A DNA stretch of 64,000 nucleotides from an archaeon (GTDB lineage Archaea; Micrarchaeota; Micrarchaeia; Norongarragalinales; UBA97). The first letter of the stretch is position 1, and each line of letters opens with the position of its first letter. Location of the stretch: the NCBI GenBank assembly GCA_020057405.1, contig JAGVFW010000013.1, forward strand, positions 87,711-151,710. The letters run 5' to 3'. A model generated the notes under the pieces. It was not told the DNA's origin. It was given only the letters and a program-made list of their open reading frames with translations, and did no database searches. The translations under genes and the position numbers were made by a program. This document shows positions 3,150-64,000 of this stretch, one piece after another.

Positions 3150-3155
3150 AAATAA

Positions 3156-4190
3156 ATGGAAGGGGAGTTTGGAAAAGGGCTGTTGTACGAAGTGCCGGAG
3201 GAACTCCGCCACGAGGAGCGGGTGCTGTGGGTGTTTTCGTTACGGCAACTGCTCATACTCCTGCCATTTGCCATCGTGGCGCTGGCTTGCTTCCTGGGAC
3301 TCGAGAACCTGGACTTTAAGGCGCGGCTCGCGATTCCGGCAATCATCTTATTTGCGGGTTATGCGCTTGCCTGCATTAAACCCGTGCAAGAGGCGGCTTG
3401 GCGCCACGTCAAGTACTTGATCACGCCTAGGCGGACAAGCTGGCGCGAGCCCCTCGCATCCGCTCACTTCGTCGGGGTTGAGGAAGTAAAAGCCAACGCG
3501 GTCTTCACTTCTGACGGCCACCTGCTTTCAGTGCTTTTGGTGACGCCCCTTGACTACAGCGTGCTTGGAGAGGACCAGAAGCACGCGCTCGTCTACGGCT
3601 ACCGCTCGTTTCTAAACGCAATCTCGTTTCCAGTGCAGGTGGTGATGCGCACGACGAAAGTCAACTTGAAAGAGTATTTTGCGAAAGCCAAGGCAAAGGC
3701 CGCTAAGGCGGGTGATTCTGCGGCGCTATTGGAAATTAGCAAGTTCGAGCAGTTCGTCGAAGACTTCATCTCTTCGCGGGGAGTCAATGACCGGCTGTTT
3801 TACCTCGTAATCCCGCAGGAGAAGGGAAAAGACCTCGAAAAGTCGTTGCGAGAGCTTGAAAACAAGACTGCCGTGTGCTGCGAAAAACTGGCGGCAATCG
3901 GCATTGCGTGCCGGAGGCTGGACGACAACTCACTAGTCTCGCTTTACGCAAGCTTTTTCGGGGGATTCGTGGAAGCCGGAGCCGATTACCTATCGCTCTT
4001 GACTTTCCTTGACTTTGCGCAAGAGCAACGGGAAAAACTCGAGGCTGCGGGAGCGAAAATGCGGGCTAAAGCCGTTTTCATTGGAATGGAGGTCGAACAA
4101 AGTGCTGGAAAGACTGTTTGGAAGGAAAAGGGAAGAACCGAAGCTCAAGGAAAGGCTATTGCCGTACCTGCTGGCGCCCTCAAGCATTGA
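3156..4190 (+). CDS. PrgI/VirB3-like protein with a C-terminal soluble domain
   Basis: N-terminal YEVPEEL…ERVLWVFSLRQL followed by two TM helices is the PrgI pattern; FLNAISFPVQVVMR region typical of conjugative TraE/PrgI fusions. Confidence 0.7.
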   Translation: MEGEFGKGLLYEVPEELRHEERVLWVFSLRQLLILLPFAIVALACFLGLENLDFKARLAIPAIILFAGYALACIKPVQEAAWRHVKYLITPRRTSWREPLASAHFVGVEEVKANAVFTSDGHLLSVLLVTPLDYSVLGEDQKHALVYGYRSFLNAISFPVQVVMRTTKVNLKEYFAKAKAKAAKAGDSAALLEISKFEQFVEDFISSRGVNDRLFYLVIPQEKGKDLEKSLRELENKTAVCCEKLAAIGIACRRLDDNSLVSLYASFFGGFVEAGADYLSLLTFLDFAQEQREKLEAAGAKMRAKAVFIGMEVEQSAGKTVWKEKGRTEAQGKAIAVPAGALKH

Positions 4191-6387: not shown

Positions 6388-6440
6388 CCCGGAAAGGTGC
6401 TTTCGCAAGCAATTTAAACACGCACTACAACTTATTATAG

Positions 6441-6689
6441 GTGATTACAGTGGATTATACTACCATTCAAATCAGCACAAACATCCGCAATAGGCTTACT
6501 GAACTCAAAGACTCGCCCCGCCAGACTTACGACGAGGTTCTAGAAAAGCTCATAGAACTTGTCCCGAAAGGAGATGAAGAAGGAGAATACAAACCCGCTT
6601 TCAGAGGCAGCATCCTGCGCGGACTCCTTGACGCACGACACTCGAAAACCACAGCGCTGGCAGAACTGGAGAAACAATTCGGAACGTGA
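6441..6689 (+). CDS. putative antitoxin (RHH-like N-terminus)
   Basis: TTIQIS…RLTELK…TYDEVLEKL archaeal RHH pattern; GTGA overlap with the RelE-like gene. Confidence 0.7.
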   Translation: MITVDYTTIQISTNIRNRLTELKDSPRQTYDEVLEKLIELVPKGDEEGEYKPAFRGSILRGLLDARHSKTTALAELEKQFGT

Positions 6690-6946
6690 AACTCATGGCC
6701 TACTCCGTTCAGTTTTCGCAGGAAGCACGGGCAAACCTAGAGAAACTAGATCCACCTACGGCACGCAGAGTGATTGAAAAAATAAAGGTTGCAGCGGCAG
6801 ACCCCTTTCACTATTTCAAGCGGTTAACCAACAGCGAACTCTACAAGCTTCGCGCCGGCGATTGGCGCATCCTCGCACTCATCAACCCCACAAACGATAC
6901 CCTATTCATCGTCACCCTAGGTCATCGTAAGAACATCTACGAGTAG
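6686..6946 (+). CDS. relE: RelE/ParE family toxin
   Basis: YSVQFS…LEKLD…YKLRAGDWRI…LGHRKNIY RelE signature. Confidence 0.88.
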   Translation: MKLMAYSVQFSQEARANLEKLDPPTARRVIEKIKVAAADPFHYFKRLTNSELYKLRAGDWRILALINPTNDTLFIVTLGHRKNIYE

Positions 6947-8637
6947 GGCAAGCCGTCAGCCACTTCTAGTGCTTTCTCCCTCACCATCGCCGCCGACAAT
7001 CCAGCGTCAACCACGCGAATTAACCTCCATCCTTTTTTGGCCAACAGCGTTTCCTTTTCTCCGTCGCGTGCTTTTTGCTTGTCCTTTGCGTGAAAGAACG
7101 CCCCATCCCACTCCACCGCAAGCTTCCTTTCAGGAAAAGTGACGTCAATCTCGAAAGGCGGTAACACCGTCCTGTCGGAAAAAACTATCTTCTCGGCCGG
7201 CAAAAGCCTGCGAAGCTCTTCATAAAACAAGCGCTGGTTGAAGGAACCGGAAATGAACGGCGCCTCGGCTTCAGCGTTCTCCTTCACGCCGTCCTCCCAC
7301 AACGGCTTAACGCGCACTTTAGTCACCTCACGCTTGACACTCGTCGAGAAAAGCGCCTCGAACTGCTGAAGGGAATGCAATTCCTCCTCAACCAACCTCG
7401 CCTTGTCAGAATACTTTCCGCCGCAAAGCAAAGCAACCGCGTAAGCAGCGTCGTCAGGCTCGCGCGTCAAAAACACGGCATTAACCGCACAGTTAGCTGC
7501 AAGCGCCGGGTCAAGCGCTTTCACGCTCTGGCTTACGACAATCAAACCGAGCCGAAACTTTCGCGCTTCGCGTAATACCGTCGCGACGTACGACGGCTCT
7601 TCTTCAGTGCCAACGCAGAGCTTCTGCGCCTCATCTACCAAAGCAAACAAAACCGGCAGGTTTTCAAGCGACTGACAGTAAGAATAGAGCTTACGCAAGA
7701 AAACCTCGGCAAAAACAGCTTGCGCGTCAGCCGACCGCAACCCCTTAAGCTCAAAACAACAGGTCTGACCCGTGACAACCGAAAACGGAACCTGCGTTTT
7801 TGAAGAGAACACCCCGCTTAGAGAAATCATGTCGAGCCTGCGCTTCAACGAAAAGAGACTCGCGTCCGGCTTCTTCTGGCTCGACAAAAGAAAACTACAG
7901 TACGCCGACACTTCAGGAAGAGAAGGCGGCCGCCTGTTCCACGAACCCCTATCACCATCGCGAAAACCCCGCTCCTCAAACGCACCCTTGACGCATTTGG
8001 CCAAAAAATACGCTTGAATATCCCCAAGCCCTAAAACCCGCTTTAACATGGAAGAGCTTTCCGCAGATTTTTCAGCCGGCGTACAACCATCCAACTCAAA
8101 AAGCGCAAGATTGACTTTTCGAGCATCAAACACCCGCCCCCCACACGCACGAACGACGCCAGCGTACTCCTCGTGCGGGTCAAGCACGACCACTGGCGCC
8201 CCCGCTTTCGTCAACCCATAAACCAAGCGCTTCGCCAAAGTCGACTTACCAGAACCACTCGCCCCCACAATCAAGGTGGAAGGCGCCTGCTCCTTAGAGT
8301 AGTCGACGGAATAACCCCTAAACAATAATGGACTTACCCACGCGAAATCCGTTCGAGGCGAAGAACTCCCACGCGCATACAACCGCTTCAAGAGCCACAA
8401 CCACGGAAAAGCGAAGTAAAACGCGGTTTTCGCAACGTTCGACGCAGTAAAACTACCCGTCTTGCGCAACACCCACCTAACTTTACCTATCTTGACACTA
8501 ACATTTTCCATCTTTGCCAACTCCGACGCGAGCTGCAAAACTTTTTTCCGGGAAAAGCCCGCGTCAAAGCCACGGCGAAGGCGCGCCGCGAGCCTTAAAC
8601 TCCTTAGCGAGCCCACAAAGGCGAAGCGACCGCCCAA
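6937..8637 (-). CDS. HerA/DUF87 (VirD4-like) ATPase fused to a DUF559/Vsr-like endonuclease
   Basis: GASGSGKS, VLDPHEEY, LVDEAQ, EARKFRLG…SQ; C-terminal FEIDV…LAVEWDGAFFH…RDGEK…GWRLIRV. True start may be ATG 8511. Confidence 0.8.
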   Translation of the reverse strand: MGGRFAFVGSLRSLRLAARLRRGFDAGFSRKKVLQLASELAKMENVSVKIGKVRWVLRKTGSFTASNVAKTAFYFAFPWLWLLKRLYARGSSSPRTDFAWVSPLLFRGYSVDYSKEQAPSTLIVGASGSGKSTLAKRLVYGLTKAGAPVVVLDPHEEYAGVVRACGGRVFDARKVNLALFELDGCTPAEKSAESSSMLKRVLGLGDIQAYFLAKCVKGAFEERGFRDGDRGSWNRRPPSLPEVSAYCSFLLSSQKKPDASLFSLKRRLDMISLSGVFSSKTQVPFSVVTGQTCCFELKGLRSADAQAVFAEVFLRKLYSYCQSLENLPVLFALVDEAQKLCVGTEEEPSYVATVLREARKFRLGLIVVSQSVKALDPALAANCAVNAVFLTREPDDAAYAVALLCGGKYSDKARLVEEELHSLQQFEALFSTSVKREVTKVRVKPLWEDGVKENAEAEAPFISGSFNQRLFYEELRRLLPAEKIVFSDRTVLPPFEIDVTFPERKLAVEWDGAFFHAKDKQKARDGEKETLLAKKGWRLIRVVDAGLSAAMVREKALEVADGLPYS

Positions 8638-32853: not shown

Positions 32854-33789
32854 TTAGCGGTCAAATCCCATCATTTCGTCAAACCGCTCGTCCGCGCCCT
32901 TTAGACCGCGCCAGAGTTTTTCGTGGAACTTTAGTTTTTTTGGCGTTTCCTCGAACTCTCCGCACACTTTGGCAGCCAAGTCGATTAGTTCCTTGCCCGC
33001 GGGGCTCTTTGGCTTTGAGATTACGACGGGGATTTCCGCGGCAAGGCTGCGGTGCACTTCGACGTCGGTGGGCACTTTGGAAATCACCTTTAGCTGTGAT
33101 AGCTTCTCGACTTCGTCGACCGACATCTGGTGTTCCTTTCCGTCAAACATGTTTAGCACGATGCCCAGGTGCACCTTGTCTTCGCCTTGCAGGGCCTGCC
33201 GGTAGCGCACGATGTCGATTACCGATGGCATGGTTGGTATTGAGACGTAAAGGAGCTTTTCGGCAGCGAACAGGGTGGCAAACGCTTCCCGTCCCAGGCC
33301 CGGGCCGGCGTCAAGCACGACGTAGTCATATGAGAGTGCGAGCTGCTTGGCGATTTTCTTGATTTGGGAAACGTCGACGGCCTGGATGTTGGTCGCCTTC
33401 ATTGACGCCGGCAGCACGGTCATGCCGCTTGGCTCGTGCTTGTATAGCGCTTCGGTGAGCTTGGCTTTCCCGCGCAGCACGTCGTTTAGCGTGTGCGGCG
33501 CGTAATGCATGCCGAGGGCCACACCTAGGTGCGACGTGCCGATGTTGCAGTCAATGACGACTACTTTTTTTCCAAACTCGTGCGCGAGGGCAGCGGCGAG
33601 GTTGATTGACACCGTAGTTTTGCCTACCCCGCCCTTGCCGGAGACTACGCCGATGAGTTCGCCCGGAGGCCTGGGCCCGGTTTTCTTCCCTTCTTTTTTT
33701 TCCTCTAGCGTCTTTTTTTCCTCTGGGGGTTTGGCATTTTTTCTCTCTTCCGCCTTCTTATCTTCTTTTCCGCTTTCCTTTGCGCCCAT
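32854..33789 (-). CDS. minD: MinD/ParA-family ATPase
   Basis: Deviant Walker A SGKGGVGKTT, VIDCN, LDAGPG; Lys/Glu-rich N-terminal extension. Confidence 0.9.
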   Translation of the reverse strand: MGAKESGKEDKKAEERKNAKPPEEKKTLEEKKEGKKTGPRPPGELIGVVSGKGGVGKTTVSINLAAALAHEFGKKVVVIDCNIGTSHLGVALGMHYAPHTLNDVLRGKAKLTEALYKHEPSGMTVLPASMKATNIQAVDVSQIKKIAKQLALSYDYVVLDAGPGLGREAFATLFAAEKLLYVSIPTMPSVIDIVRYRQALQGEDKVHLGIVLNMFDGKEHQMSVDEVEKLSQLKVISKVPTDVEVHRSLAAEIPVVISKPKSPAGKELIDLAAKVCGEFEETPKKLKFHEKLWRGLKGADERFDEMMGFDR

Positions 33790-44548: not shown

Positions 44549-46102
44549 TCACTTCTTGTTTCCCCTGAACCGTTTCTCGATGCCGGCGGCGATTTTGTCG
44601 ACTTCCTCGCCGATGCCCTTGGCGATAGATGCCCCTTCCTTTTCGCCCTTGCCTATCTTTCTAGAGTAGTGCCCTATTGCGATTGCAACTATTGCTGCGA
44701 TGAGCAGGAGCAGCAGGTTGATCCAAATCGTCATCCATAAAAGCTGGAAGCTGACTGGGGCCGAGTCTTTCGAGATACCTTCGTAGACGTCGGCAAAGAC
44801 GTTTGCAGTGAGCGTATAAGTGCCCTGCGAGGGCGGGTTGGGCCACAAGAGCTGCACCGTCCGAGCTTCTCCAGCCGGGACATTCATGACGTCGCTTGGC
44901 CGAAGCACTGCTACCGCCTGGTTTTGCGAGTCAATCACGCGCACGACGAGGTTAAGTGGGATTTCGATGTTGCCGTTGTTGCGCACCGTTGCCTTGATTG
45001 TTACCGGCGGGGCGGGCTTCGGAGTTCGCAACTGGTCGGCGAGGTCAAAAATGACTGCGTGGCCCGTGCTTGTTCCGAACAAGTCTGCGTAGTCGGGGTA
45101 AATGTCCTCCACTTCGAAAGTGTAGTTTGGCAACGGCGCCTGGTATCCGCGCAGCACGTTTAGCAGGTCTTCGCGCACGAAGGACGCCCCCGCGTTGGGC
45201 TTTATTTTCGTGAGCTTGACGATGAAGCGCACGCCGGCCGCGGTCTTTAGCACTTCGCCCGCGTTTATCACGCTCTGCCCAACCCCGACGACCACTTCCT
45301 GGTGCGTCTGGTTTAAGAGTGTGGCAAGCTGGGCGAGTGAATAGACGCTGACTTCGGGCACGACGTAGACGGGGTACTCGTGCGAGTAAAGCAGCGTGTT
45401 TTCAAGCACCTCGCCGGTTGTCACCAGGCTTTGCGAGCCCGGCGGCTTTATCTTGAAAGCGAATTCGTTGACCTTTCGAGTTGTCTCGAACTCGTCGCGG
45501 CCCCTGATGAAAGTCACGTCGAGGTCGGCTAACTGCCTCATGCGCGTTTCCTCGATGTTGCCAACGACGATGACCCGCCTGACGCCAACCTGCCTCATCG
45601 CATCGATGACGTCCTGCTTGGGGCCTAAAGTTCCTTCGCTTGGCACCATCGCGGCTCCAAGCGTGCGTGCGAGGTAAGTCGAGGAGATTGCGTCGAGGGC
45701 AAAGTCGTCGCGCGTTATTATGACTGTCTTCGGCCTCATTTTCTGAAGCAAGAGTATTGCCAGGTCATGGTGGTCGACGTATGGTGCGGCCTTGACGCTC
45801 AGGCCAACCGAGCGCAGGCTTATCGTAAGGGCAGGCAGTTCGCTCGTCCGCTTGTAGTAGAGGAGCGCTTCGCTCACGCGCAGGCCGTAGACTTCTTGGA
45901 CGAGCGTGCGCAAGTCCTCGTTTCCAAGGATGTACTTGAACTTGTAGCCTTCAGCATACGAGTACTGGGCCGCAATCACCGCGTCCTGCCAGGCCGGGGA
46001 GTTGAGCACGACTACGGCCGTAGCAGTGTTGGCAGTCTGGGCCGAGGCGAAGCTAGCTGCAGTAATCAAGAGGAACAAAAATGCAAAGGCACGCCGTATC
46101 AC
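44549..46102 (-). CDS. surface protein with cell-wall-binding-2-like repeats, a CARDB/Ig domain and a TM
   Basis: IRGRDEFETT, DDFALDAISSTYLA, ATVRNNGN; signal peptide and C-terminal TM. Confidence 0.7.
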   Translation of the reverse strand: MIRRAFAFLFLLITAASFASAQTANTATAVVVLNSPAWQDAVIAAQYSYAEGYKFKYILGNEDLRTLVQEVYGLRVSEALLYYKRTSELPALTISLRSVGLSVKAAPYVDHHDLAILLLQKMRPKTVIITRDDFALDAISSTYLARTLGAAMVPSEGTLGPKQDVIDAMRQVGVRRVIVVGNIEETRMRQLADLDVTFIRGRDEFETTRKVNEFAFKIKPPGSQSLVTTGEVLENTLLYSHEYPVYVVPEVSVYSLAQLATLLNQTHQEVVVGVGQSVINAGEVLKTAAGVRFIVKLTKIKPNAGASFVREDLLNVLRGYQAPLPNYTFEVEDIYPDYADLFGTSTGHAVIFDLADQLRTPKPAPPVTIKATVRNNGNIEIPLNLVVRVIDSQNQAVAVLRPSDVMNVPAGEARTVQLLWPNPPSQGTYTLTANVFADVYEGISKDSAPVSFQLLWMTIWINLLLLLIAAIVAIAIGHYSRKIGKGEKEGASIAKGIGEEVDKIAAGIEKRFRGNKK

Positions 46103-53707: not shown

Positions 53708-56700
53708 CTAGCCGCCGAGGCCCTTGAGCCGGGCGTTGAGCGAGTCGATGTAGCTTTGCGCCATGCGCAGGCTGCCCTGCTTCATCTTGTCGCCGGCAAT
53801 CTTGAGCTCGAGCTCCAGGTCGTAAGTGTCCCTGCCGCCTGCCTTGAGTGCGGCAATGCGCTTGGCCGTCTCGTCAATCTGCATTTGCACTGCGTCAAGG
53901 GCATCCAATTCGGCGTCTGTGAGAGCAAACGTGCTGTGCTTGAGTGCCCTGAAGCTGACGAACCATGGCTTGCCGTCGTTGTACTCTGGGTTCTGGAAGA
54001 GGCCCGAGCCGATGGTGAGTTTGGTGACGCGGTTGGCGTAGTCGCTGCCGTACTTGGTCTTGACGCGGCCGATGTCTCCCTCGTACTTGGTGCGCAGCTG
54101 GATTTCATTGCTGATGTTGGCCCGAATCGCGCCCTTGAAGTCGAGGAGCACTTGGGAAATGAGGAACAAGCCGATGCCCCACTTGCGGAATTCGCGGAAG
54201 CCGCGCTCTAGGGAGACGTAGCCGCCCTTGCCGCCGTACTTTGGCAACAACCTGTGGACTTCATCGAAGATGAGGAGGACCCGCAGGTTCTTGCTTTCAG
54301 GCGGCCTTGAGGCGAAGATGTTCTCGACGCTCTTTCGCACGAACCCGTCAATCAAGTCGTTGGGCAGCTTGTTCATCACGAAGACCGTGATTTCGCCGGG
54401 CTTCATGTGGTCAAAGATGTTCACGCCAACGCTTGGGTCCTTGATGAGGATGATGTTGGTCTTGTAGCTTCGCGCGGCCTCGGGTTTCATGCCAAAGTTT
54501 CGGTAGAGCGCAAGCATTTGCGCGTCGGTCTGTGGCCTGATGAAGCCAGTCCACTGGGCCGTCGGGTCGAACACTATGACCGGCAGGTTGCGTTCAAGCA
54601 GTTCTTCGGTGATGACTTGTGCCGAGACTGACTTACCTGAACCAGTACCGCCTGCCGCGATGCTGTGCATCTGCAGCTTGTTTAAGTCAACATAGGCCGT
54701 GATGTCGGTTTCCGCAATCCTGCCGACGGGAATGGCGTTGGGGCCGGGCTGAGGCAGTTTCTTGAAGTCAAGCGGGAAGATGTAGCGCGCCGCCTGCCTC
54801 TTGCCTGTCATGTAGCCGCGGTAGACGCGCCTGCCGACAAGCGTTGCAACTATGAGCAGGAGTATGATGTAGGTGAAGATGCTCGAGGTGATGCCGCCGA
54901 TGACTAAACCGACTAGCGATGGTGAGGTCAGCTCGAAGTCGTCAACGGCCTTTGAGTTCCTTCCGCCAGAGTAGGTGATGATTGCCTCAAGCACGTACTT
55001 GTCTGCGGGAACGTCTTCGGGAATCGGGATTGCAACGACGCGCGTAACTATGTCGCGCACTGCGACCGTGTCTGACGTGGTGAGGATGGCCGCGTCTTCG
55101 CCGACGGTCTTGACGTTTAGCGTAAGCTGGCCGTCGGTCACTTCAGAAACTTCGCCGATGTTCACTATAGTGACTTCGCCGCGAAGCGTGTTGCCGGGTT
55201 GCATGACCTTGCTTAGCACTTTGAGCCTGACTTCGAGGATGGGTTCCGGCGCGCGGACTATCTTGACCGTAATCGGCCTGCGGTGCACGACGCCGTCGAC
55301 AGTGATGATGATGGTGCCCTGGTACGTGCCTGGCAGCGAGTTTTCAGTGCTGATGATGTTGACTACAACCCCGCCGACGCTGTTGGGGCCCAAGGTAACC
55401 GACGGGGAGTCGAAACTAATGAAGTCCGCTGCATCGCCTTCTACCCTCGCCGTAGCCGTTGTCGTCCTGCCGAGGTTGTTCGTCACCGAAATCGAGTACT
55501 TGACGCTCTCGCCGGGCTTGATGGTGACAAAGATGATGTTGGCTTCAACCTGTGATGGTGGTGCCGAGATGTTGGCTTGTCCGCTGCCAGCCTGTCCCGT
55601 GCCAGCTCCTCCGCCCGCTCCTGGCGTTGGCGAGCCTTCACCACCGCTTCCGCCTCCTCCGCCACCGCCTCCTCCTCCGCCACTGCCTCCTCCGCTTCCG
55701 TTGCCAGTGCCGTTACCGGTGCCGTTGCCGACGTTTCCGCAGTCGGCGTTGCACACTGAAGCGCCTTCGCCGTGGTTTGATTCGCAGATGCCGTCGCCGC
55801 AAATGAATTGCGCAAGCGCGTAGGCCGGCTTAAGCAAGGTTGTGCGTTCGACCATGATGTTCTGGCTTGAGACGAGTACTGAGTTGTTGCTGCGCACCCA
55901 GCTGTTGTTGTCGCACCCGACTGTTGGCGTGTAGTTGGCGCACGAGTAGATGCCAAGGTTTGATTCTGAAAAGCCGGTGTAGCCCGTGTAGTTCAGCGAG
56001 ACGTTGGCATTTCCGTAGGTAAGCTGGTTTGCTAGGTAAAGGCCCTTGATTGCACCCGCTCCGATGCGCACTGCCGGGATGTTGCCAAAGAGAACCGGGT
56101 TGTAGACACTAGCGGTAATCGGGACCGATATCAGCAACAGGCGGTCTGAAGTGAGGTTGAACGACAGTCGGTTGTAAGTGTCGCCGTAGACGGTCTTGTT
56201 GTAAGTGCCGTTTGACAGTGTAGCGAACTCGAACGGGTGGGCGCCAAGGCTGTCGAAGAAGTCAAACACTATCGGCAGGGCCGAACTGCCGCCGGTCTCC
56301 TGGTCAGTAGAAACGCCGTGGAAGAGGAACGCGTTTCCGACTACGAACGTACCGCTTGCCGTGCCGCAATTGGCGCTGGCATCGCAGGCCCGCGCGTCAA
56401 TGGTGTACGTTCCGGTTGTCGTGGTGTTGGTCAGGTTAAGCGCGTAGTGGTAGATGTCCCCAGCCCGGCCAAGGTAGGTGAGGGACTGGGCCTGCACCAT
56501 GCCGCCTGGATAGGTGATGTTGAGCGTGACGTTCGCGTTGTTGATGATGCCGCCGTCAGTGACGTTGAGTGTGATTTGCTGGACCGTGCCCGCTGCAATT
56601 ATCGCAGTGAAGTTAATTCCTAGCACCGGGGCGGCATTGTCAATGTAGGCAACCGCGCGTTGTTCAATGTCATAAGCCGTGAGGCTGCGGTTTAAGTCGT

Positions 56701-59700
56701 ATGCCGTGACGTTAAGGTCGTAGGTCTTGCCCGCCGCTATCGAGGGCGCGGTGACGTTAATCAGCCACAAGCCAAGAACGTCGGAGTAGTTGATTGCGGT
56801 GAAGTTGGTAACCGGGTTTGACGTGCCGTCGGCGTCAAGGCTTACGTTGAAGGCCACGCTCGAGTTAATCGCGAGGGCCTCGTAGCTTACGTTGACGAGC
56901 AACTGCAGCGTGTCACCCGAGCTGACGTTGGTGTAAGGCTGCGCTTCGGTCGGCTGCGTGATGTTGACGAGCAGCGGCTCAAGGGTGATGTTGACTGCGG
57001 TGTTGACATCGGACGGAATCGCACTCGTGTTCCTCGTCGTGATGTTGCCCAAAAGCTCGAGGTGGTTGTTCGAGAAGGGCGTGTTGTAGGTGACTAACAC
57101 TGCCGTGCTTGCGCCCGGGCTAAGGCTAAGGTAGGTCGTGTTGAATGTGACGTAGGGCGCGATTGCACCCTGGGCGAGCACGGTGAATTCGCCGTAAATG
57201 TTTCCGGTGTTGGTGACAAGCAGCGTAGTGAGCGTGCCGTTGGTGCTTTGCACTGCAACCGTGCTCACGCTTGTCGGCGTCTGGCTCCAGCTTAGGTTGG
57301 ATGGCACTGTCACCTCGATGGTGAGCGAGTCGTTGGTGCCGTTAGCGCTCGTTGCCGTCAGGGTGCCCGTATATAGCGCGGGCGGCTGCGCGGCCGGTAC
57401 CGTTACCGACACGTTTATCGCAGCCGCCGCGCCTGGGGCAAGGAAGGATACGCTTGAGATGTTGAGGTTGACTGTGAAGCTTGTGCACACGGCGCCCGAC
57501 GCGCAGGTTAAGGCGACGTTGAAGAGCGGCGAGTTGCCAGTCGAGTTTAGCACCGCGACCTTGCTTGAGGTTCCGGCAGCCGAGATGGTGTAGGCGAGGG
57601 TCTTGGGCGTGAAGTTGGCGATTGCCGAGGCAGCCACCCTAATTGTGAAGGATGTGGTGTTGATGCTGGTGGTGTCATCAAGGTTAGTCCAGTTTGAGGT
57701 TGCGTTGAACTGGTAGTCTCCGGCAGCGGTGCCAGCGGGCAGGGATATGAGCACGGTGGTGTTATACGTGCTTTCTGCCGACGTGTTCTTGAGAAGCGCG
57801 CCGATTATGGTGAAGTTGGGCGCCAGGCTGCCGGTAGCGATAGTCAGGTTGAGCGTCGTGTTTTGCGTACGTGAGAAGCCCGAGTTGTTTGCAAACACTA
57901 TTACTGCGACAGCCGCACCAGCGCTCCTGCTGACGTTGTAGACGTTGATGATGTTGCCCGTGTAGTTGGTTGACGTCGTGACGTTGGTGGTCGCGGATGC
58001 CGTGCGATTGAACGCCTCGGTGCAGTTGATGTTGCCGACCGTGTCGTTCGCGCACAGCTGCACCGCGTAGGCGCCGCCGACGTTCGTCGAGTAGTTGGTG
58101 CCGTAAAGGCCTCCCCCTAACGCGGTCAGGTAAGAGATTATGCTCGTCGAATTCGGCATGGTGATGTTTGTCCAGGCAAAGTCGACTGCGAAGTTGTCGG
58201 TGATATTCGCGCTTATCGAGAGGTTTTCGTAGATTATCTCGAAGACCTGCGGGGTGACGTTGATGTTCTTAAACTGCGGCGGCGTGTCGGTGACGTTTAG
58301 GTGAACCGTCGTGAAGTTCTGCGTTACCGTGTCGTTGAACATTGTTATCGTGATGTCGTAGATTCCGGGAGGCTGTATGCCGGGTATGACGTAGCTGACG
58401 TTGACCGTGATGGACGCCTGCTTGTCAATGTCTGCGGCGTAGAGGGTAAGGTCATTTAGCCGCAGGAGGTTTGGCCCGTCCTGGCTCACTAGCAGGCCGA
58501 GCTTGATGTTGCCCGTGTTGTTGATTACGAGGGTGCCGATTGTGCCACTGCCGCCAATGGGCACGGTGACGTTGCCAAACGTCGTGGGCGAGCGCACGAA
58601 GTGCTTGTCAACGGACACTGTGAGGTTCATCACAAGCGAGTCGGTGCCGTCGTTGGTAGAGTTCGCTTGCAGGCTAGTCCAGTAGAAGCCCGGCGCCTGG
58701 CCGGCGGGCACGGTGATTGTCAGGTTGACTGTGAAGTTCGTGCCGGCCTGAACAAGGCCCTGGAAGTTCGGGTTGATGGTGAGGATGCAGCCCGAGCAGC
58801 TTGTGGCCAAGTCGCCACCTTGGGTGAACACGTGGACGCCCTGCAGTGCGGCATTGCCCTTGGAGAGAACCACGATTGTGCCAATGTTGGTAGTCACGCC
58901 ATGCGGCGTGTTGGCGTTGAGCGCAGTTTCCACAATGTCAAGCACGGGGTTTGACGCAACTATGATGAGGGTGGTGTTCTGCGTGAAGTTGTTCGTCAGG
59001 TCGGGGTTGCGCCAGGTGACGTTGTAGGTTATGGTGATGAGCTTGGGTGGGGTTGCAGCCTCGACAGTCACGAGCACGTTTCTCACGCACGAAACGTTGG
59101 GCCGCACGATGCCGCAGCTGATGCTCGTCTGGTTGTAGGTGATTTCGTTGTTCGAGTCGTCCGTCAGGTTGATGCTGGTGACGTATGATGGCGCGGGGCC
59201 GGTGTTGGTGAAGTTGATTGTGACGTTAAACGTGAAGTTGTCGGTCTGCGTGATGCCGGAGGCAGTTATCTGCGTCACCGATACGGGTACCCTGCCGGTC
59301 GTCTTGCCGTCGACCTGGAATGTGCCTGCAAACGTGGTGTTGAGGTTCCTTTCGGGCGGCAGGTCGATGGCAAAGAGCGTCACGAGGTAGGTGCCGTCAA
59401 TGGCCGGTACGTAAGTGACGTTGTAGGTGGAGTTGTCGATAGTAGTGAGCGTGAGGTTTATTGCAGTGCCATTTGGCATCGTGACCGTCGCGTAGGCGCT
59501 TGAGATGCCGTTGTCGTCGGTGATATTCGCGCTGATTACCGTGATGTTGAGGTTGGCTTCAAGGCTCGCGTTTGGCAGGATGCTTACGCTGTAGAATTGC
59601 GGCGGGTTCTGGTCTTGGACCGTCACCGTGACTATTGAGGCGTTGGTGCCCGCGCTGTAGAACTTGGGCACGTCGTCGCCGATTCCGCACGCTATCGTGA

Positions 59701-62700
59701 GCGCGCCCTTTTGGCCGGGCGTGAAGTTGGCGACCGCGTAGCCCGTTGAGTTTGTGGTGACGTTGGCAAACAACACCGAGCCGGGGGTGTAGTTGTAGTA
59801 GAAGCTGATGTTGTAGTCAGGCACGTTTGCCCCGCTTTCGCTGTCGAGGACAGTGCAGGTTACGTTGAACTCCTGCGGGTAGGGGAGTGTGGCGCCGTCT
59901 GTGGGTGAGTTGACGAGCACGTTGGCGACACCGCTAACTGTGATGATGACTGACTTGTTGCCGTCGTCGTAGTACGGCAGGCTGGTCCGAAGCGTGTAGT
60001 TGCGGAAGCCGGTGGTCTGCGTCGTTAGCGGGAAGGTCGCGCTGATGCCGGTTGCAATCAGTTGCGTCTCGTTGTACCAGTCAAACTGCGGGTTGACTGA
60101 GTAGTTGTTGTTCTCGTCACTCAAGTTTGCCGAGAAGAGCACGGAGCCGGCCTTGCTGTAGAAGCTGCCGTTAAGGGGCGAGGTGATGTTGGCCAGAAGC
60201 TTGCCGAACACGTTGAGGCTCGTCGTGTTGGTCGACGCGTTTTCATTCGAGTTTCTAGTGGCATTCACGCTGAAGTTGTAGTTGCCGGGCATCGCGTCGT
60301 CGGGTGGGTTGATGAGGACGTAGCAGCTGCCGATTGCGTTTGTGGTGCAGTTTGCCACAAAGCCGCTTTCGTTGTAGAAGCGCACGTCGGCACCAGCCGC
60401 CGTGCCGATTGCGGCGTCAAGCACGCGCACGGTGATGTTTGCTGTAAACGGCGAGAACGAATCGTTGCGGTAGATGGTCTGGTTCACCGTGACGAACTGG
60501 TCAATCACGAGCTGCCTTGCGAGCCGCACGTTGATGCGCTTTTCAAAGTCCGACGTGTTGTAGTTGAGGCCGTCTGCGGTGCTGATGTTGCAGCTTATCG
60601 AATAGTTCGCGGGAAGGTCGATAGCCGTGTTCCAAATCCAGTTGGCCTCGCCGCTTCCGTCTGTTGTGGTGCTTGACTGTAGCGTGTCGTTCTTGTAGAA
60701 GTTAACCGCATAGCCGCTAAGCGGGGCGAACGTGTCGTTGTCGTAAACCGCGCAGGTAACGGTAAGCAACTGGCCTGCGGTCGCGTCAGTGTTGTTGGCG
60801 GGCGAGATGCGCGTGACGTTGGCCCAGCCGTAGACGACAATCGAAGTCAGGTTCGTGCCGTTATCGTAGAACTGCTTGCTTGCGTTTGCAGTCACATTCG
60901 TCGTCCCAAGGGTGTAGCGGCTGGTGAGCGTCCAGTTGGTGAGGTTGCCTGAACCGACTGTCCTGCGGCTGGCGTTATACCATGTGATTGTCGCATCGCT
61001 GATTACCGCGGCGCAGTCGTCATTCGCCGTCATGTTTAGCAGGAACGGCTTGTTGCGGTTGGCGACCTTGCCCGGAGTGGGTGAAGTGACGTTTGCAAAG
61101 AGCTGGCCGACTACCGTCAGGCTGGTGGCCGACCCGTTCACCGGCTTGTAGCAGCTGTCGGTAGTGCCGCCAGTCCACTGGCGCACGCCCACTGAAGTTG
61201 CGCACGTAGGGTCGTGGTCAATCGAGCAGTAGCCGTTTGAAGACGAGCAGGTCGGCGAGAGCGTGTAAGTCGAACCGCTTTCGGTAATCCACACTGTTCC
61301 CGCAGTGCCGTTGGGATAGACCCCGAGGTCGGAGTCGAAAATCCGCGTGCTCAGGAACGCGTTACTCGTGCCCGTCCTTCTGATCGTCGAGTTGCTGCTA
61401 GCGTTGAAAATCGTCACGTCGTCGGGCTCAAGGGTGAAGTTGAGCCACGAGGAGTTGTACGTGTAGGACAAGTTGAGGTAGTCTGTCGAGACGTTGCCGC
61501 CCATCGCGCCTACCGCGAGGAAGTAGATGCGCGTGTCGTTGACGTACCGGCTGATGTTGCCGGAAAACACGTTCGTCAGGACTTGTGACGATGCCGACGT
61601 GTGGTTGGCGAATCCCTGCCAGGCGGTTGCGTTGTTGTCCCAGATAAACAGCGAGTCGCTGGAGGTTGTCGCATTCTTGCCAAAGCCCTTGTACCACACT
61701 GTGAAGTTGAGTGTCTGGAACTGGTCGCCGGCGACACGGAAACTGAATTTCTGCGTCGGCCAGTTGGCGCCAGAGGCATTCGTGACGGCAAGAGTGCCCT
61801 CGTCTGCAGATACATCCGAGTAGTTGTTGGTTGCCGCCTGGGCGCCGGAGCCGAACTCGGCTTCGGCAGTGATGTTGTTGGCCGCGGGCGGGAACGCGGC
61901 GGTTGTCGAGTATGTGGCGTTGTGCAGGGCCGTCGGGAACACTATTGAGGCGAAGTCATAGGTTGCCGTGGTGGCCGTGGCCACGGCCGGCACTTCGGCC
62001 CCGTAGCCGAAGAAGTCTGTTGTGTTGAACTTGAAGTAGTTGACTCCCTGCTCGTCGCACTGGAACCGGTGTGCGAACTCGTATTGTTTGTTCTGCACGC
62101 CGCTGCCTGCGACGACCGTGTTGTTCATCAGGTGCCAGTCGAGCCCGTCCCGGCTCTTCCAAAGCGTGAGGTTGTTCTGGTTGAGGTCGGGGTCGTTGAT
62201 GGTCACGCGGAACAGGTAGGATTCGCCCCAGCCGCCGAAGAAGTGGTTAACGCTCTGCAGGCTGAGTGCGGGCGCCGCGCCGATGAAGAACGCGTTTTCC
62301 TTGCGCGTGAAGTTGGTTGCATAGAACGGGCGCGAAGTGTTGAACGTGACGTTATAGTAGCCTATGGTCGTTACACTCTGCCAGCTGCAGTTGTACCAGC
62401 CGTTGCCAATCGTGTTGTTGGTGCAGAAGAACGAGTTGGCGCCCGTGCGCTGGTTAAACGCGGGGGTAGCGTCAGTCACGGTGGTGTTTGTCGTTGCAGA
62501 GCAGTCGTCATCGAGGTAGCCGAGCAGCGGGACTATCGAGTTGCGCAAGTAGCCTTCCCCGTTTGGCGCGGTCAGGCTCGGCTGCAAGTCGCCCCAAATC
62601 TGAACAGTCAGGTTAGTCGAGTTCACATCCTTGTAGCAGGTGTTCCTGTCGGTGCCGCCAAACCACTTCTGCAGCCCTACCTTGTAGTTGCAGCTTGGGT

Positions 62701-64000
62701 CAAAGTCGAAGATTATGTTACCTGAGTCGTTCGTCTGCAGGCCTTGGCTCTGGCGCACATCGGTGCCGTTGATGGTCGTCCAGATTGTGGCATTCCATCC
62801 GAGGCTAAGCGGCGTGCTCCTATCGTAGTCGGTGGCGAGTAGTACGAGCTCTCCACTCGTCGTGCCGTTTCGGTAAATTACTGAATTGTTTCCGCTAAAG
62901 TGCGTGATGTTGATGTCATCTGCTTCGATGGTGAAGTTCAAGGCCGTCGTGTTTGTCGCGTACGTGCGGTTGTCGGTCGCGGTGAACGAGAATTCCCACG
63001 CGCCAAGGTCCGAACAGCTATATCCGCCAAACGGTCCGCGCGTGCTTAGCACCACGGTAGTGTTTGAGGGATTGTCGATGAACGTATTGTTGGCTTCGTT
63101 CCAGGCGGCGTTACCAAACGCCCTTACGTAGAGTGTGATGGTGATGTTGTCCGCGTCAAGGTCGCTCAAGTTAACCGAGAATGGGAATTCCTCTCCCCAG
63201 CCAGCGACAGGCTTGAGTGCCGTTGCGTTTGACAGGGCCGGCCGCGTTTCGACGAAGAGCGCGTTGCCCTGGGTCGTAGTGACGTTGTTGTGGAATGCCT
63301 TTGACGCGTTCATGGTGAAGTTGTGCCACTTGGCATCCATGTCGGTCGTGTTGCGGTCGCAGGCAAAGAGGCCGCCTCCGAAGTTGACGGGCGGGTAGCA
63401 GGTCTGGTTAAGGTACGTAAAGACGTTGGTGATGCTCATGTTGACGTTAGCCACGTCAACGCCGGCGCCGCAGTCGTCGGAAAGCGTGCCCTGGAACGTC
63501 ACGTTAGTGCCCCGCAGTGTTGTCAGGCCGATGGGGTCGGTGATGACAAGCGAGAGCGTGCCGAGCACCGTTGTGGTGAAGTTTGCACCGGTGGTGTTGG
63601 TAGGCTTGTAGCAAACGTCGTTAAACACGCCCGCCGTCCAAGTCTGCATCCCGGGCGTGTAGTCGCAGGTCGGGTCGAAGTAGTGGCTGTTAAAGCCACT
63701 GGAGTTTGTGCTGTTAGAGGACCGCTCGACAGTCCCGTCGCCCCTGCTCACCCACGTGCTGACGTTTACGCTGGACGGAGCATAGGCGTTGCTGTCATTG
63801 TTGAACACGCGCACGCCAAATAGCTGCACGCCGGGGTCAGAGCGGTTTACCGTAGTGGCGTTGCCGATGGAATAGTAGACCGTGACGTCATTTTGCTCGA
63901 TTTGGAAGCCGGTGTCGTTGGTGGTCGTGTTGAAGATGTTTGTTCCGTCGCGGATTTCGAACTTGAATTGCGTGCTTGAACTGAGGTCGCCGCAAGTGTA
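53708..64000 (-). CDS. giant (>3430 aa, 5'-truncated) surface protein with a TM and a C-terminal HerA/DUF87-type ATPase
   Basis: Frame stays open from 63829 to the window end by manual translation; Ig-like repeats, CGDGIC…C…DC, Gly linker, TM, then GGTGSGKS, VFDPT, IFDEVH, EFRKWGIG…SQ. Confidence 0.92.
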   Translation of the reverse strand, partial: YTCGDLSSSTQFKFEIRDGTNIFNTTTNDTGFQIEQNDVTVYYSIGNATTVNRSDPGVQLFGVRVFNNDSNAYAPSSVNVSTWVSRGDGTVERSSNSTNSSGFNSHYFDPTCDYTPGMQTWTAGVFNDVCYKPTNTTGANFTTTVLGTLSLVITDPIGLTTLRGTNVTFQGTLSDDCGAGVDVANVNMSITNVFTYLNQTCYPPVNFGGGLFACDRNTTDMDAKWHNFTMNASKAFHNNVTTTQGNALFVETRPALSNATALKPVAGWGEEFPFSVNLSDLDADNITITLYVRAFGNAAWNEANNTFIDNPSNTTVVLSTRGPFGGYSCSDLGAWEFSFTATDNRTYATNTTALNFTIEADDINITHFSGNNSVIYRNGTTSGELVLLATDYDRSTPLSLGWNATIWTTINGTDVRQSQGLQTNDSGNIIFDFDPSCNYKVGLQKWFGGTDRNTCYKDVNSTNLTVQIWGDLQPSLTAPNGEGYLRNSIVPLLGYLDDDCSATTNTTVTDATPAFNQRTGANSFFCTNNTIGNGWYNCSWQSVTTIGYYNVTFNTSRPFYATNFTRKENAFFIGAAPALSLQSVNHFFGGWGESYLFRVTINDPDLNQNNLTLWKSRDGLDWHLMNNTVVAGSGVQNKQYEFAHRFQCDEQGVNYFKFNTTDFFGYGAEVPAVATATTATYDFASIVFPTALHNATYSTTAAFPPAANNITAEAEFGSGAQAATNNYSDVSADEGTLAVTNASGANWPTQKFSFRVAGDQFQTLNFTVWYKGFGKNATTSSDSLFIWDNNATAWQGFANHTSASSQVLTNVFSGNISRYVNDTRIYFLAVGAMGGNVSTDYLNLSYTYNSSWLNFTLEPDDVTIFNASSNSTIRRTGTSNAFLSTRIFDSDLGVYPNGTAGTVWITESGSTYTLSPTCSSSNGYCSIDHDPTCATSVGVRQWTGGTTDSCYKPVNGSATSLTVVGQLFANVTSPTPGKVANRNKPFLLNMTANDDCAAVISDATITWYNASRRTVGSGNLTNWTLTSRYTLGTTNVTANASKQFYDNGTNLTSIVVYGWANVTRISPANNTDATAGQLLTVTCAVYDNDTFAPLSGYAVNFYKNDTLQSSTTTDGSGEANWIWNTAIDLPANYSISCNISTADGLNYNTSDFEKRINVRLARQLVIDQFVTVNQTIYRNDSFSPFTANITVRVLDAAIGTAAGADVRFYNESGFVANCTTNAIGSCYVLINPPDDAMPGNYNFSVNATRNSNENASTNTTSLNVFGKLLANITSPLNGSFYSKAGSVLFSANLSDENNNYSVNPQFDWYNETQLIATGISATFPLTTQTTGFRNYTLRTSLPYYDDGNKSVIITVSGVANVLVNSPTDGATLPYPQEFNVTCTVLDSESGANVPDYNISFYYNYTPGSVLFANVTTNSTGYAVANFTPGQKGALTIACGIGDDVPKFYSAGTNASIVTVTVQDQNPPQFYSVSILPNASLEANLNITVISANITDDNGISSAYATVTMPNGTAINLTLTTIDNSTYNVTYVPAIDGTYLVTLFAIDLPPERNLNTTFAGTFQVDGKTTGRVPVSVTQITASGITQTDNFTFNVTINFTNTGPAPSYVTSINLTDDSNNEITYNQTSISCGIVRPNVSCVRNVLVTVEAATPPKLITITYNVTWRNPDLTNNFTQNTTLIIVASNPVLDIVETALNANTPHGVTTNIGTIVVLSKGNAALQGVHVFTQGGDLATSCSGCILTINPNFQGLVQAGTNFTVNLTITVPAGQAPGFYWTSLQANSTNDGTDSLVMNLTVSVDKHFVRSPTTFGNVTVPIGGSGTIGTLVINNTGNIKLGLLVSQDGPNLLRLNDLTLYAADIDKQASITVNVSYVIPGIQPPGIYDITITMFNDTVTQNFTTVHLNVTDTPPQFKNINVTPQVFEIIYENLSISANITDNFAVDFAWTNITMPNSTSIISYLTALGGGLYGTNYSTNVGGAYAVQLCANDTVGNINCTEAFNRTASATTNVTTSTNYTGNIINVYNVSRSAGAAVAVIVFANNSGFSRTQNTTLNLTIATGSLAPNFTIIGALLKNTSAESTYNTTVLISLPAGTAAGDYQFNATSNWTNLDDTTSINTTSFTIRVAASAIANFTPKTLAYTISAAGTSSKVAVLNSTGNSPLFNVALTCASGAVCTSFTVNLNISSVSFLAPGAAAAINVSVTVPAAQPPALYTGTLTATSANGTNDSLTIEVTVPSNLSWSQTPTSVSTVAVQSTNGTLTTLLVTNTGNIYGEFTVLAQGAIAPYVTFNTTYLSLSPGASTAVLVTYNTPFSNNHLELLGNITTRNTSAIPSDVNTAVNITLEPLLVNITQPTEAQPYTNVSSGDTLQLLVNVSYEALAINSSVAFNVSLDADGTSNPVTNFTAINYSDVLGLWLINVTAPSIAAGKTYDLNVTAYDLNRSLTAYDIEQRAVAYIDNAAPVLGINFTAIIAAGTVQQITLNVTDGGIINNANVTLNITYPGGMVQAQSLTYLGRAGDIYHYALNLTNTTTTGTYTIDARACDASANCGTASGTFVVGNAFLFHGVSTDQETGGSSALPIVFDFFDSLGAHPFEFATLSNGTYNKTVYGDTYNRLSFNLTSDRLLLISVPITASVYNPVLFGNIPAVRIGAGAIKGLYLANQLTYGNANVSLNYTGYTGFSESNLGIYSCANYTPTVGCDNNSWVRSNNSVLVSSQNIMVERTTLLKPAYALAQFICGDGICESNHGEGASVCNADCGNVGNGTGNGTGNGSGGGSGGGGGGGGGGGSGGEGSPTPGAGGGAGTGQAGSGQANISAPPSQVEANIIFVTIKPGESVKYSISVTNNLGRTTTATARVEGDAADFISFDSPSVTLGPNSVGGVVVNIISTENSLPGTYQGTIIITVDGVVHRRPITVKIVRAPEPILEVRLKVLSKVMQPGNTLRGEVTIVNIGEVSEVTDGQLTLNVKTVGEDAAILTTSDTVAVRDIVTRVVAIPIPEDVPADKYVLEAIITYSGGRNSKAVDDFELTSPSLVGLVIGGITSSIFTYIILLLIVATLVGRRVYRGYMTGKRQAARYIFPLDFKKLPQPGPNAIPVGRIAETDITAYVDLNKLQMHSIAAGGTGSGKSVSAQVITEELLERNLPVIVFDPTAQWTGFIRPQTDAQMLALYRNFGMKPEAARSYKTNIILIKDPSVGVNIFDHMKPGEITVFVMNKLPNDLIDGFVRKSVENIFASRPPESKNLRVLLIFDEVHRLLPKYGGKGGYVSLERGFREFRKWGIGLFLISQVLLDFKGAIRANISNEIQLRTKYEGDIGRVKTKYGSDYANRVTKLTIGSGLFQNPEYNDGKPWFVSFRALKHSTFALTDAELDALDAVQMQIDETAKRIAALKAGGRDTYDLELELKIAGDKMKQGSLRMAQSYIDSLNARLKGLGG

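Follow-up and report, generated by a model that had tools for sequence, protein, structure and literature searches.

A SPEARE-type giant surface protein with a HerA-clade ATPase and a conserved coiled-coil partner in a micrarchaeon

Introduction

Cells of DPANN archaea live attached to those of other archaea, and it is an open question how they hold and exploit these hosts. Hamm et al. (2019; PMC6642349) gave the name 'SPEARE' to very long nanohaloarchaeal proteins that are mostly extracytoplasmic and carry a transmembrane (TM) segment toward the C-terminus. In the sections of that paper drawn on here, the ectodomain is reported to contain at least one laminin-G domain, and the intracellular part is described as the most conserved region and read as a type III restriction domain, with similar cytoplasmic domains in Woese-, Aenigm- and Micrarchaeota; SPEARE was detected by proteomics, and such giant proteins, which are produced in culture, can fill several percent of a genome of 1 Mb. 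Reva et al. (2023; PMC10266531) re-read SPEARE as a signal peptide, tandem immunoglobulin (Ig)-like domains, a TM segment, a 'VirB4/TraG-like' ATPase and a coiled-coil tip, and proposed a secretion 'straw'. Between them, the two papers proposed attachment, pore or 'straw' functions, and the SPEARE proteins that they name include NAR1_1133 of Ca. Nanohaloarchaeum antarcticus (5,998 amino acids, aa) and SVXNc_0300 (9,409 aa) (PMC6642349, PMC10266531). In this study, we analyzed a stretch of 64,000 nucleotides (nt) from a micrarchaeal genome (contig JAGVFW010000013.1 of assembly GCA_020057405.1, positions 87,711-151,710, forward strand; hereafter the window), which ends inside a giant gene. Our results indicate that this fragment covers the 3' two-thirds of the gene for a giant surface protein of the SPEARE type, and we put the probability of the full explanation given below, with its gene module and proposed mechanism, at about three in four.

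Work on HerA-clade ATPases also bears on this locus. CedB and CedD are TM-anchored members of the clade that are required for DNA import in Sulfolobales (PMC11868833). In the parts of a study of defence HerA rings used here (HerA-DUF4297; PMC11291478), the rings are described as nearly inactive until a partner orders them, and the HAS barrel and the helix bundle are said to contribute to the HerA ring interfaces.

Results

A giant type-I membrane protein truncated at a contig end

The source genome consisted of 1.22 Mb in 17 contigs, and the end of the window was also the end of its contig (151,710 bases), where the giant gene was truncated. What is present is a single stop-free open reading frame (ORF) of 3,430 aa with an open 5' end (Table 1). 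Its closest full-length relative, P0002 (5,201 aa, encoded on a 1.3-Mb contig), showed 41% identity in the N-terminal 672 aa and 54% in the C-terminal 618. Because residue 1 of the window's protein was co-linear with residue 1936 of P0002, roughly 1,900 N-terminal residues may be missing. They were not found on the other 16 contigs by tblastn with aa 1-2730 (E ≤ 1e-5); the sole match in that search was a paralogous stretch in the window's own gene for a 2,037-aa protein.

The frame encodes a type-I membrane protein with a large ectodomain rich in glycosylation sites, one TM helix and a cytoplasmic HerA-clade ATPase. The ectodomain part (aa 1-2960) held 187 NxS/T sequons where its composition predicts 65.9, and the remainder of the protein had one; an STT3/AglB homologue was encoded in the genome (above the Pfam cut-off). 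The only strongly hydrophobic stretch was the TM helix, which is followed by the basic stretch RRVYRGYMTGKR. A first-pass annotation of the window, made from the sequence, had read one continuous frame leading from an NxS/T-rich ectodomain of more than 3,000 aa through a TM helix to the ATPase, and this reading agrees with the stop-free frame and with the 3,028 ectodomain residues present. It had also placed a Cys knot, a poly-Gly hinge and the TM helix where we found a 4-Cys motif (nt ~55739-55801), a disordered linker (poly-Gly at nt ~55590-55725) and aa 3029-3057 (nt 54830-54916), respectively.

To describe the part next to the membrane, we used an AlphaFold2 (AF2) model of aa 2728-3075 (61 sequences; predicted local distance difference test, pLDDT, 86.7), in which a small element rich in Cys leads into a Gly-rich linker predicted to be disordered (pLDDT <50 at model residues 32-77), followed by two beta-sandwiches and the TM helix. 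Foldseek matched the membrane-proximal domains to tandem Ig/fibronectin type III-like chains. The description of the whole ectodomain as Ig-like, which also came from the first-pass annotation, was thus borne out by fold for these two domains (pLDDT ~97). For the distal ectodomain, the most variable region among relatives, the label stays putative: it comes from Pfam matches that were all sub-threshold (MG2, Filamin and DUF4625) and from Ig-type families precomputed for the ectodomains of relatives. When the giant protein was compared with itself (BLASTP, E ≤ 1e-4), no internal repeat pairs were printed, and the distal modules were marked by short motifs only. No protease or toxin-like domain was found by Pfam in the part of the protein present. 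The exact 4-Cys motif occurred in 28 of 80 related loci, always 273-308 aa ahead of the ATPase module, whereas the 530 residues ahead of the Ig-like domains had a homologous stretch in 60-62; here and below, counts out of 80 refer to the 80 best loci from GTDB species genomes, and counts out of 64 to loci with at least 3 kb downstream.

The fusion recurs across DPANN archaea

A search with the cytoplasmic part among proteins of 1,886-6,003 aa, a range that excludes the named SPEARE proteins above 6,003 aa, returned at least 296 relatives, nearly all with DPANN labels. The best 120 of these showed 45-67% identity, and the named ones were assigned to Micr-, Aenigmat-, Nano- or Nanohaloarchaeota or labelled '(uncultured) archaeon'; short matches (221-706 aa) were mostly from short contigs or marked partial. 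An exhaustive search gave 352 clusters at 50% identity (E ≤ 1e-30). Among the 150 best representatives, a TM-like segment stood just ahead of the ATPase module in 142, the other eight being two fragments and six proteins slightly below the TM threshold, and at least 150 residues preceded the module in 138, at least 1,000 in 76 and at least 3,000 in 25.

At the genome level, 540 of the 599 candidate stretches in GTDB species genomes encoded a relative. The 80 best loci had DPANN labels, plus one Heimdallarchaeota-binned 3.5-kb contig and one Altiarchaeota locus. Within the order to which the window belongs, the ATPase was present in 11 of 40 relatives. A tree of 81 modules grouped the window's module with five from Micrarchaeota (support 100/99), and Nanohaloarchaeal-type labels also appeared among the relatives (Nanohaloarchaeota P0051, 51% identity; Nanohalobium P0236, 46%; Nanohalarchaeota L034, 61%). 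The Micrarchaeota labels of the nearest relatives and the 1.22-Mb archaeal genome fit the DPANN host that the first-pass annotation had supposed. It had also named a stop between ectodomain and ATPase, or absence of the fusion from relatives, as grounds for giving up its reading; we found a stop-free frame and the same fusion in hundreds of relatives.

Two loci deserve mention in their own right. In a relative of the same order (G031:C12, locus L009/L019), an open frame of 12,373 aa ended in the same ATPase module. The Heimdallarchaeota-binned contig (locus L051) carried the module, with 61% identity to the window's, together with the coiled-coil partner described below, and looks like a mis-binned DPANN contig.

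The ATPase is a stripped-down relative of HerA

The cytoplasmic part comprised 373 aa (aa 3058-3430), with Walker A (GTGSGKS) at 3118 and Walker B (LLIFDEVH) at 3242. In Pfam, the DUF87/HerA central domain (PF01935) scored 45.9 bits (cut-off 23.2), and HerA_C, FtsK_SpoIIIE and T4SS-DNA_transf were below their cut-offs in the giant protein. The best phmmer matches in the PDB were Thermococcus HerA (E 1.6e-7), Sulfolobus HerA (1e-6) and a Sir2-HerA system (1.4e-6). In NCBIfam, crenarchaeal HerA came first (39 bits, cut-off 800) and CedD second (30.3 bits, cut-off 600); a further HerA family scored 23.7 bits (cut-off 970), TraC and CD1110 scored far under their cut-offs, and CedB was unlisted for the giant protein. 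With scores far under all cut-offs, the ATPase is therefore a member of no curated NCBIfam family.

Structural comparison gave the same order. The ATPase was modelled with AF2 from the last 403 residues (47 sequences, mean pLDDT 90.8). In Foldseek, all chains ranked before FtsK (rank 44) were HerA, the best being 4d2i (E 2.5e-14). VIA-align, independent of Foldseek, placed HerA 4d2i first (Z 25.7 over 253 residues, root-mean-square deviation 2.9), then the C-terminal part of DndH (DndH-C, 23.8) and VirB4 (4ag5, 22.5), followed by Deinococcus HerA (21.9), TrwB (17.9), FtsK (17.4) and EccC (16.7). Because of these rankings by sequence and by modelled fold, the earlier assignment to a HerA/VirB4 class is right, with HerA to be named first as the probable nearest relative.

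The first-pass annotation had also described a compact ATPase without the usual large helical insert, and our results support this. The insert, which lies between the helix of Walker A and the strand of Walker B, took up 44 aa (query 122 to 166) versus 116 aa (180 to 296) in Sulfolobus HerA, and 66 aa (query 148 to 214) versus 192 aa (243 to 435) in Thermococcus HerA. The HAS barrel was absent from the model, in which the TM helix extends into the cytoplasm and a linker of ~18 aa and a two-strand hairpin precede Walker A.

The Walker motifs, which had been read as intact, were strongly conserved. In all of the 340 relatives whose sequence covers the ATPase core, with identities down to ~45%, the Walker A Lys, the Walker B Glu, R3250, R3269, R3272 and Q3283 were invariant, and the Walker B Asp was kept in 339. 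Judged by its residues, the ATPase is catalytically intact. A separate, ordinary HerA was encoded on contig C1 (95.8 bits) and NurA on contig C3; since the genome holds its own HerA and NurA elsewhere, the giant protein's ATPase is not the genome's repair helicase. Several relatives carried precomputed matches to PF04851 (ResIII), which plausibly reflect the P-loop match behind the 'type III restriction' annotation of Hamm et al. (2019). In 66 of the 150 best representatives (e.g. P0272, P0273 and P0326), 100-484 residues extended beyond the ATPase module; they did not match the partner profile.

A coiled-coil partner and a second surface protein accompany the giant gene

Downstream of the ATPase, the window encodes a 1,215-aa cytoplasmic protein that is rich in low-complexity sequence. 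Of the 80 related loci, 77 encoded a homologue of its conserved core downstream of the ATPase; in the other three, the sequence ends no more than 304 nt past the ATPase stop, and the partner was thus present in 77 of 77 testable loci. Clustering of downstream ORFs recovered it in all 64 loci for which 3 kb or more of flank was available. Partner matches began no more than 100 nt from the ATPase stop in 64 of 78 cases, and none had a TM-like segment. In profile searches, ATPase and partner were positive in the same 12 of 41 related genomes, although these genomes are kin and the coincidence is not a statistical test. The partner falls into no named family: a PDB search with it gave nothing meaningful, with generic coiled coils as matches, and an Atlas search returned only unnamed archaeal clusters (best score 0.91), whose known phylum labels were DPANN.

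The cytoplasmic tail of the window's second large surface protein is homologous to the C-terminal module of this partner: it matched positions 328-402 of the partner profile with E 1.8e-13 when searched alone and 7.4e-8 against the full set of 9,427 ORFs in the genome. A weaker match to the module (E 3.4e-4) came from a 535-aa ORF on contig C11. In 48-49 of 64 loci, a large secreted protein came right after the partner, and it was homologous to the window's 2,037-aa protein (34-37% identity over ~1,400 aa). A ParA/MinD-like gene was recovered in 11 of 64 loci by downstream ORF clustering. In relative G011 the gene order was the same: a 2,067-aa homologue ended in the same tail (E 1.6e-8) and was followed by ParA (48% identity). 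Giant adhesin-ATPase, coiled-coil partner, second surface protein with the shared tail and ParA/MinD form a recurrent module. No description of the coiled-coil partner or of the four-gene module was found in the passages of the literature examined.

Other genes in the window

Between the giant gene and the partner lies a 258-aa ORF, for which no match was found in Pfam or NCBIfam; nor did 40 relatives, or the gaps between genes at related loci, contain a counterpart. This ORF may represent an insertion specific to the lineage, or no gene at all. Of the two genes after the partner, the first encodes the 1,019-aa protein, whose C-terminal domain is kept in the loci of the three nearest relatives; the 517-aa protein encoded by the second is kept in the loci of three relatives.

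At the far end of the window (2196-8637) we observed a conjugation-like cluster in this archaeal genome, its genes resembling those of type IV secretion systems (T4SS) and lying ~47 kb from the giant gene. VirB4-, PrgI- or polytopic p317-like genes occurred within 6 kb in none of the 80 related loci. In 17 of 64 loci (e.g. L053), a ~150-aa protein with three TM segments and a HEIAH (HExxH) motif was encoded ~2.9 kb downstream of the ATPase; the window's operon has no such gene. A 5-TM protein was present in 4 of 64. No channel-forming or polytopic membrane partner is consistently linked to the giant gene.

Table 1. Features of the window (coordinates in nt of the 64,000-nt window)
Feature	Position	Strand	Remarks
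Giant SPEARE-type gene	53708..64000	-	3,430 codons + stop; 5' end lost at contig end
Distal ectodomain, aa 1-2229	57314..64000	-	NxS/T-rich; ~325-aa modules marked DPxCxY..QxWxGG..CYK
Conserved stem, aa 2230-2731	55808..57313	-	Homologous stretch in 60-62/80 related loci
4-Cys motif CGDGICE...C..DC, aa 2734-2754	55739..55807	-	'Cys knot' of the first-pass annotation
Gly-rich linker, about aa 2759-2804	55562..55738	-	Predicted disordered
Two membrane-proximal Ig-like beta-sandwich domains	54920..55561	-	Modelled with AF2; kept in 75/80 loci
Single TM helix, aa 3029-3057	54830..54919	-	Positive residues on C-terminal (cytoplasmic) side
HerA-clade P-loop ATPase core	53918..54829	-	K3123, D3246/E3247, R-E-x-R-K-x-G, Q3283
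C-terminal three-helix tail	53711..53917	-	Helices 335-402 of model
Orphan ORF, 258 aa	52909..53685	-	HEALH (HExxH-like) motif; between giant gene and partner
Cytoplasmic coiled-coil partner, 1,215 aa	49191..52838	-	No TM; conserved core aa 456-800
Secreted NxS/T-rich protein, 1,019 aa	46106..49165	-	Repeats resembling beta-helix (by eye only)
517-aa protein	44549..46102	-	Signal peptide, CARDB-like domain, C-terminal TM
Second large surface protein, 2,037 aa	33803..39916	-	Signal peptide, 124 sequons, TM 1931-1955
Cytoplasmic tail of second surface protein, 82 aa	33806-34051	-	Matches partner profile
ParA/MinD-type ATPase	32854..33789	-	Directly after second surface protein
Polytopic membrane protein	2196-3149		Conjugation-like cluster
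PrgI/VirB3-like protein	3156-4190		Conjugation-like cluster
VirB4-like ATPase	4009-6387		NCBIfam conju_CD1110, 319 bits (cut-off 325)
DUF87/TraG-type P-loop + REase_MTES_1575 nuclease domain	6937-8637		Opposite strand to rest of conjugation-like cluster

Discussion

Judged by its architecture, by the descriptions in the two papers and by relatives with Nanohaloarchaeota-type labels, the giant protein is a micrarchaeal member of the SPEARE type. The idea put forward in the first-pass annotation was not new, as both the architecture and the attachment, pore or 'straw' functions had already been proposed (Hamm et al., 2019; Reva et al., 2023). The locus adds little to that published architecture, and the part worth following is the conserved partner module. 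Our analysis independently confirms three points: the motor is a pared-down HerA whose catalytic residues are strictly conserved, one soluble coiled-coil partner always accompanies it, and a second surface protein shares the tail module of this partner.

With regard to mechanism, the ATPase would assemble into a ring beneath the membrane, as seen in each solved structure from its clade, and such a ring might gather about six stalks into one host-contact structure. The further suggestion of the first-pass annotation, that six bundled stalks make up an ATP-powered conduit, extrapolates from the hexamers of the solved relatives and can be put only conditionally; the absence of a conserved channel protein and the make-up of the stalk, beta-sandwiches and a flexible linker, speak against a conduit. 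By analogy with HerA-DUF4297 and HerA-NurA, the coiled-coil partner could tie the ring together and would probably switch it on, and ParA/MinD might position the assembly. Since the HAS barrel and most of the helix bundle are missing and defence HerA rings need partners, we expect ring formation and ATP turnover to be controlled by the coiled-coil partner or by clustering of ectodomains on the host. As for the job of the motor, our first choice, at not much less than an even chance, would be the use of ATP to assemble, cluster or remodel the adhesion complex. Pumping of DNA or protein at the contact site, by analogy with CedB/CedD, TrwB, FtsK and EccC, is somewhat less likely, and a job of some other kind equally so. 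A broader picture is possible, and we offer it tentatively, at odds appreciably below even: a membrane-spanning host-contact machine found throughout DPANN archaea, in which a HerA-like ring is switched on and cross-linked by the coiled-coil protein. The SHOCT-like C-terminal module of that protein would also end the tail of the second giant surface protein, so that one scaffold couples two kinds of stalk, while ParA/MinD places the assembly and ATP turnover drives assembly, retraction or gating.

However, several observations weigh against the SPEARE-type reading and the machine built on it. The link to SPEARE is a comparison by the papers' descriptions and by relatives with Nanohaloarchaeota labels. 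The laminin-G domain of Hamm et al. (2019) was not among the Pfam matches of the 3,028 ectodomain residues present, nor was any found at E ≤ 0.01 in the whole 3,430 aa, although ~1,900 N-terminal residues are possibly missing. A search of six genomes from the window's own family, with completeness of 70-85%, yielded no instance of the fusion. The modelled protein need not form a ring, because it lacks the HAS barrel and the larger part of the helix bundle, both of which take part in HerA ring interfaces. With regard to the module, Pfam gave generic coiled-coil noise for the partner; among 40 sequences scanned, namely the core of the window's partner and the partners of 39 relatives, only 7 gave SHOCT and only 6 SHOCT_2, and SHOCT was not called in the window's own partner or in the 82-aa tail (Pfam, E ≤ 1). 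Partner and ATPase were fused in none of 362 stored proteins. Finally, the second surface protein and ParA lie ~9 kb from the partner in the window and do not adjoin it.

Among the other explanations, the most serious is that of a Ced-like translocase, in which a membrane-tethered ring pumps DNA or another polymer in or out at the contact and the ectodomain only holds the host. Membrane-anchored members of the superfamily do move DNA or protein, and CedB/CedD are needed for DNA import (PMC11868833); moreover, CedD was the second-best NCBIfam match, TrwB, FtsK and EccC were structural matches, and the catalytic residues are strictly conserved. On the other hand, the CedD score was a small fraction of what that family demands (30 bits, cut-off 600), six single TM helices would make a poor channel, and polytopic proteins were linked only occasionally (3-TM HExxH protein, 17/64 loci; 5-TM protein, 4/64), which leaves this explanation rather unlikely. 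Less probable still is the published 'straw' (Reva et al., 2023; PMC10266531), a T4SS-like machine with a VirB4/TraG-type motor whose ectodomain is the channel that injects effectors into the host. VirB4 was indeed a close structural match (Z 22.5 versus 25.7 for HerA), and the window does hold a PrgI-like gene, a VirB4-like gene just under its cut-off and a polytopic membrane protein (2196-6387). These genes are far from the giant gene here and have no counterparts close to it in the related loci, HerA ranked first by both sequence and fold, and Pfam found no VirB4 N-terminal domain in the giant protein. In addition, tandem beta-sandwiches with a disordered Gly linker are an unlikely build for a hollow tube, and the conserved neighbour is a soluble coiled coil that offers no channel.

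A passive anchor, with the ATPase fold kept solely for oligomerization or anchoring and ATP hydrolysis lost, would explain why the HAS barrel is gone and the helix bundle is only a remnant, but it is very improbable in view of the Walker A Lys, the Walker B Glu, the three arginines and the sensor-like Gln that are invariant in 340/340 relatives, and the Asp in 339/340. The last alternative, a chance ORF or an assembly chimera of separate ectodomain and ATPase genes, is negligible. The contig does break within the gene, which shows that repeats trouble the assembler, yet the frame runs stop-free for 10.3 kb, the Ig-TM-ATPase junction lies in one frame in 75/80 independent loci (among them one in a single-cell genome and one on a contig of 1.3 Mb), and the relatives are co-linear over their whole length. 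Because the same fusion recurs in hundreds of independently assembled relatives, it is not an assembly artefact, and mis-assembly is excluded for practical purposes. The cytoplasmic domain, its coiled-coil partner, the shared tail and ParA make up a small and concrete set of proteins to be studied jointly.

Comparison with known systems

Like the window's protein, SPEARE proteins occur in DPANN hosts and combine adhesion-type domains in a giant extracytoplasmic part with a single TM close to the C-terminus and, inside the cell, a conserved P-loop domain and an end that is helical or a coiled coil. The window's protein differs in being micrarchaeal and truncated, and no laminin-G, protease or toxin-like domain was found in the part present. 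Moreover, the downstream gene here encodes the coiled-coil partner, whereas Reva et al. (PMC10266531) describe a second VirB4-type ATPase, and we placed the motor nearest HerA, whereas they placed it with VirB4/TraG.

HerA itself (S. solfataricus 4D2I, PF01935) was the best match in sequence and fold, sharing the beta-hairpin into Walker A, Walker B, the R-E-x-R-K-x-G motif and a Gln after the next strand. In contrast with HerA, the window's ATPase lacks the HAS barrel, has a far shorter helix-bundle insert, is tethered to the membrane and fused to an ectodomain, and does not lie beside NurA. VirB4, VirD4/TrwB, FtsK and EccC have the superfamily fold (Z 22.5, 17.9, 17.4 and 16.7, respectively), and all are membrane-associated ring translocases; they are less similar than HerA, and their accessory domains and neighbouring genes were not found here. 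In CedB and CedD, as in the window's protein, a HerA-clade ATPase lies cytoplasmic to a TM helix, and Ced works between cells in contact (PMC11868833). Unlike the window's protein, Ced has a VirB4-like N-terminal domain, no ectodomain and the polytopic CedA/CedE, and the sequence similarity to it is weak (30 bits versus 600). Finally, although HerA-DUF4297 and Sir2-HerA are soluble, bacterial systems that act on DNA or NAD, with partners that bind the HAS barrel absent here, both were structural matches to the window's ATPase and provide a precedent for a HerA ring that is activated by its partner (PMC11291478).

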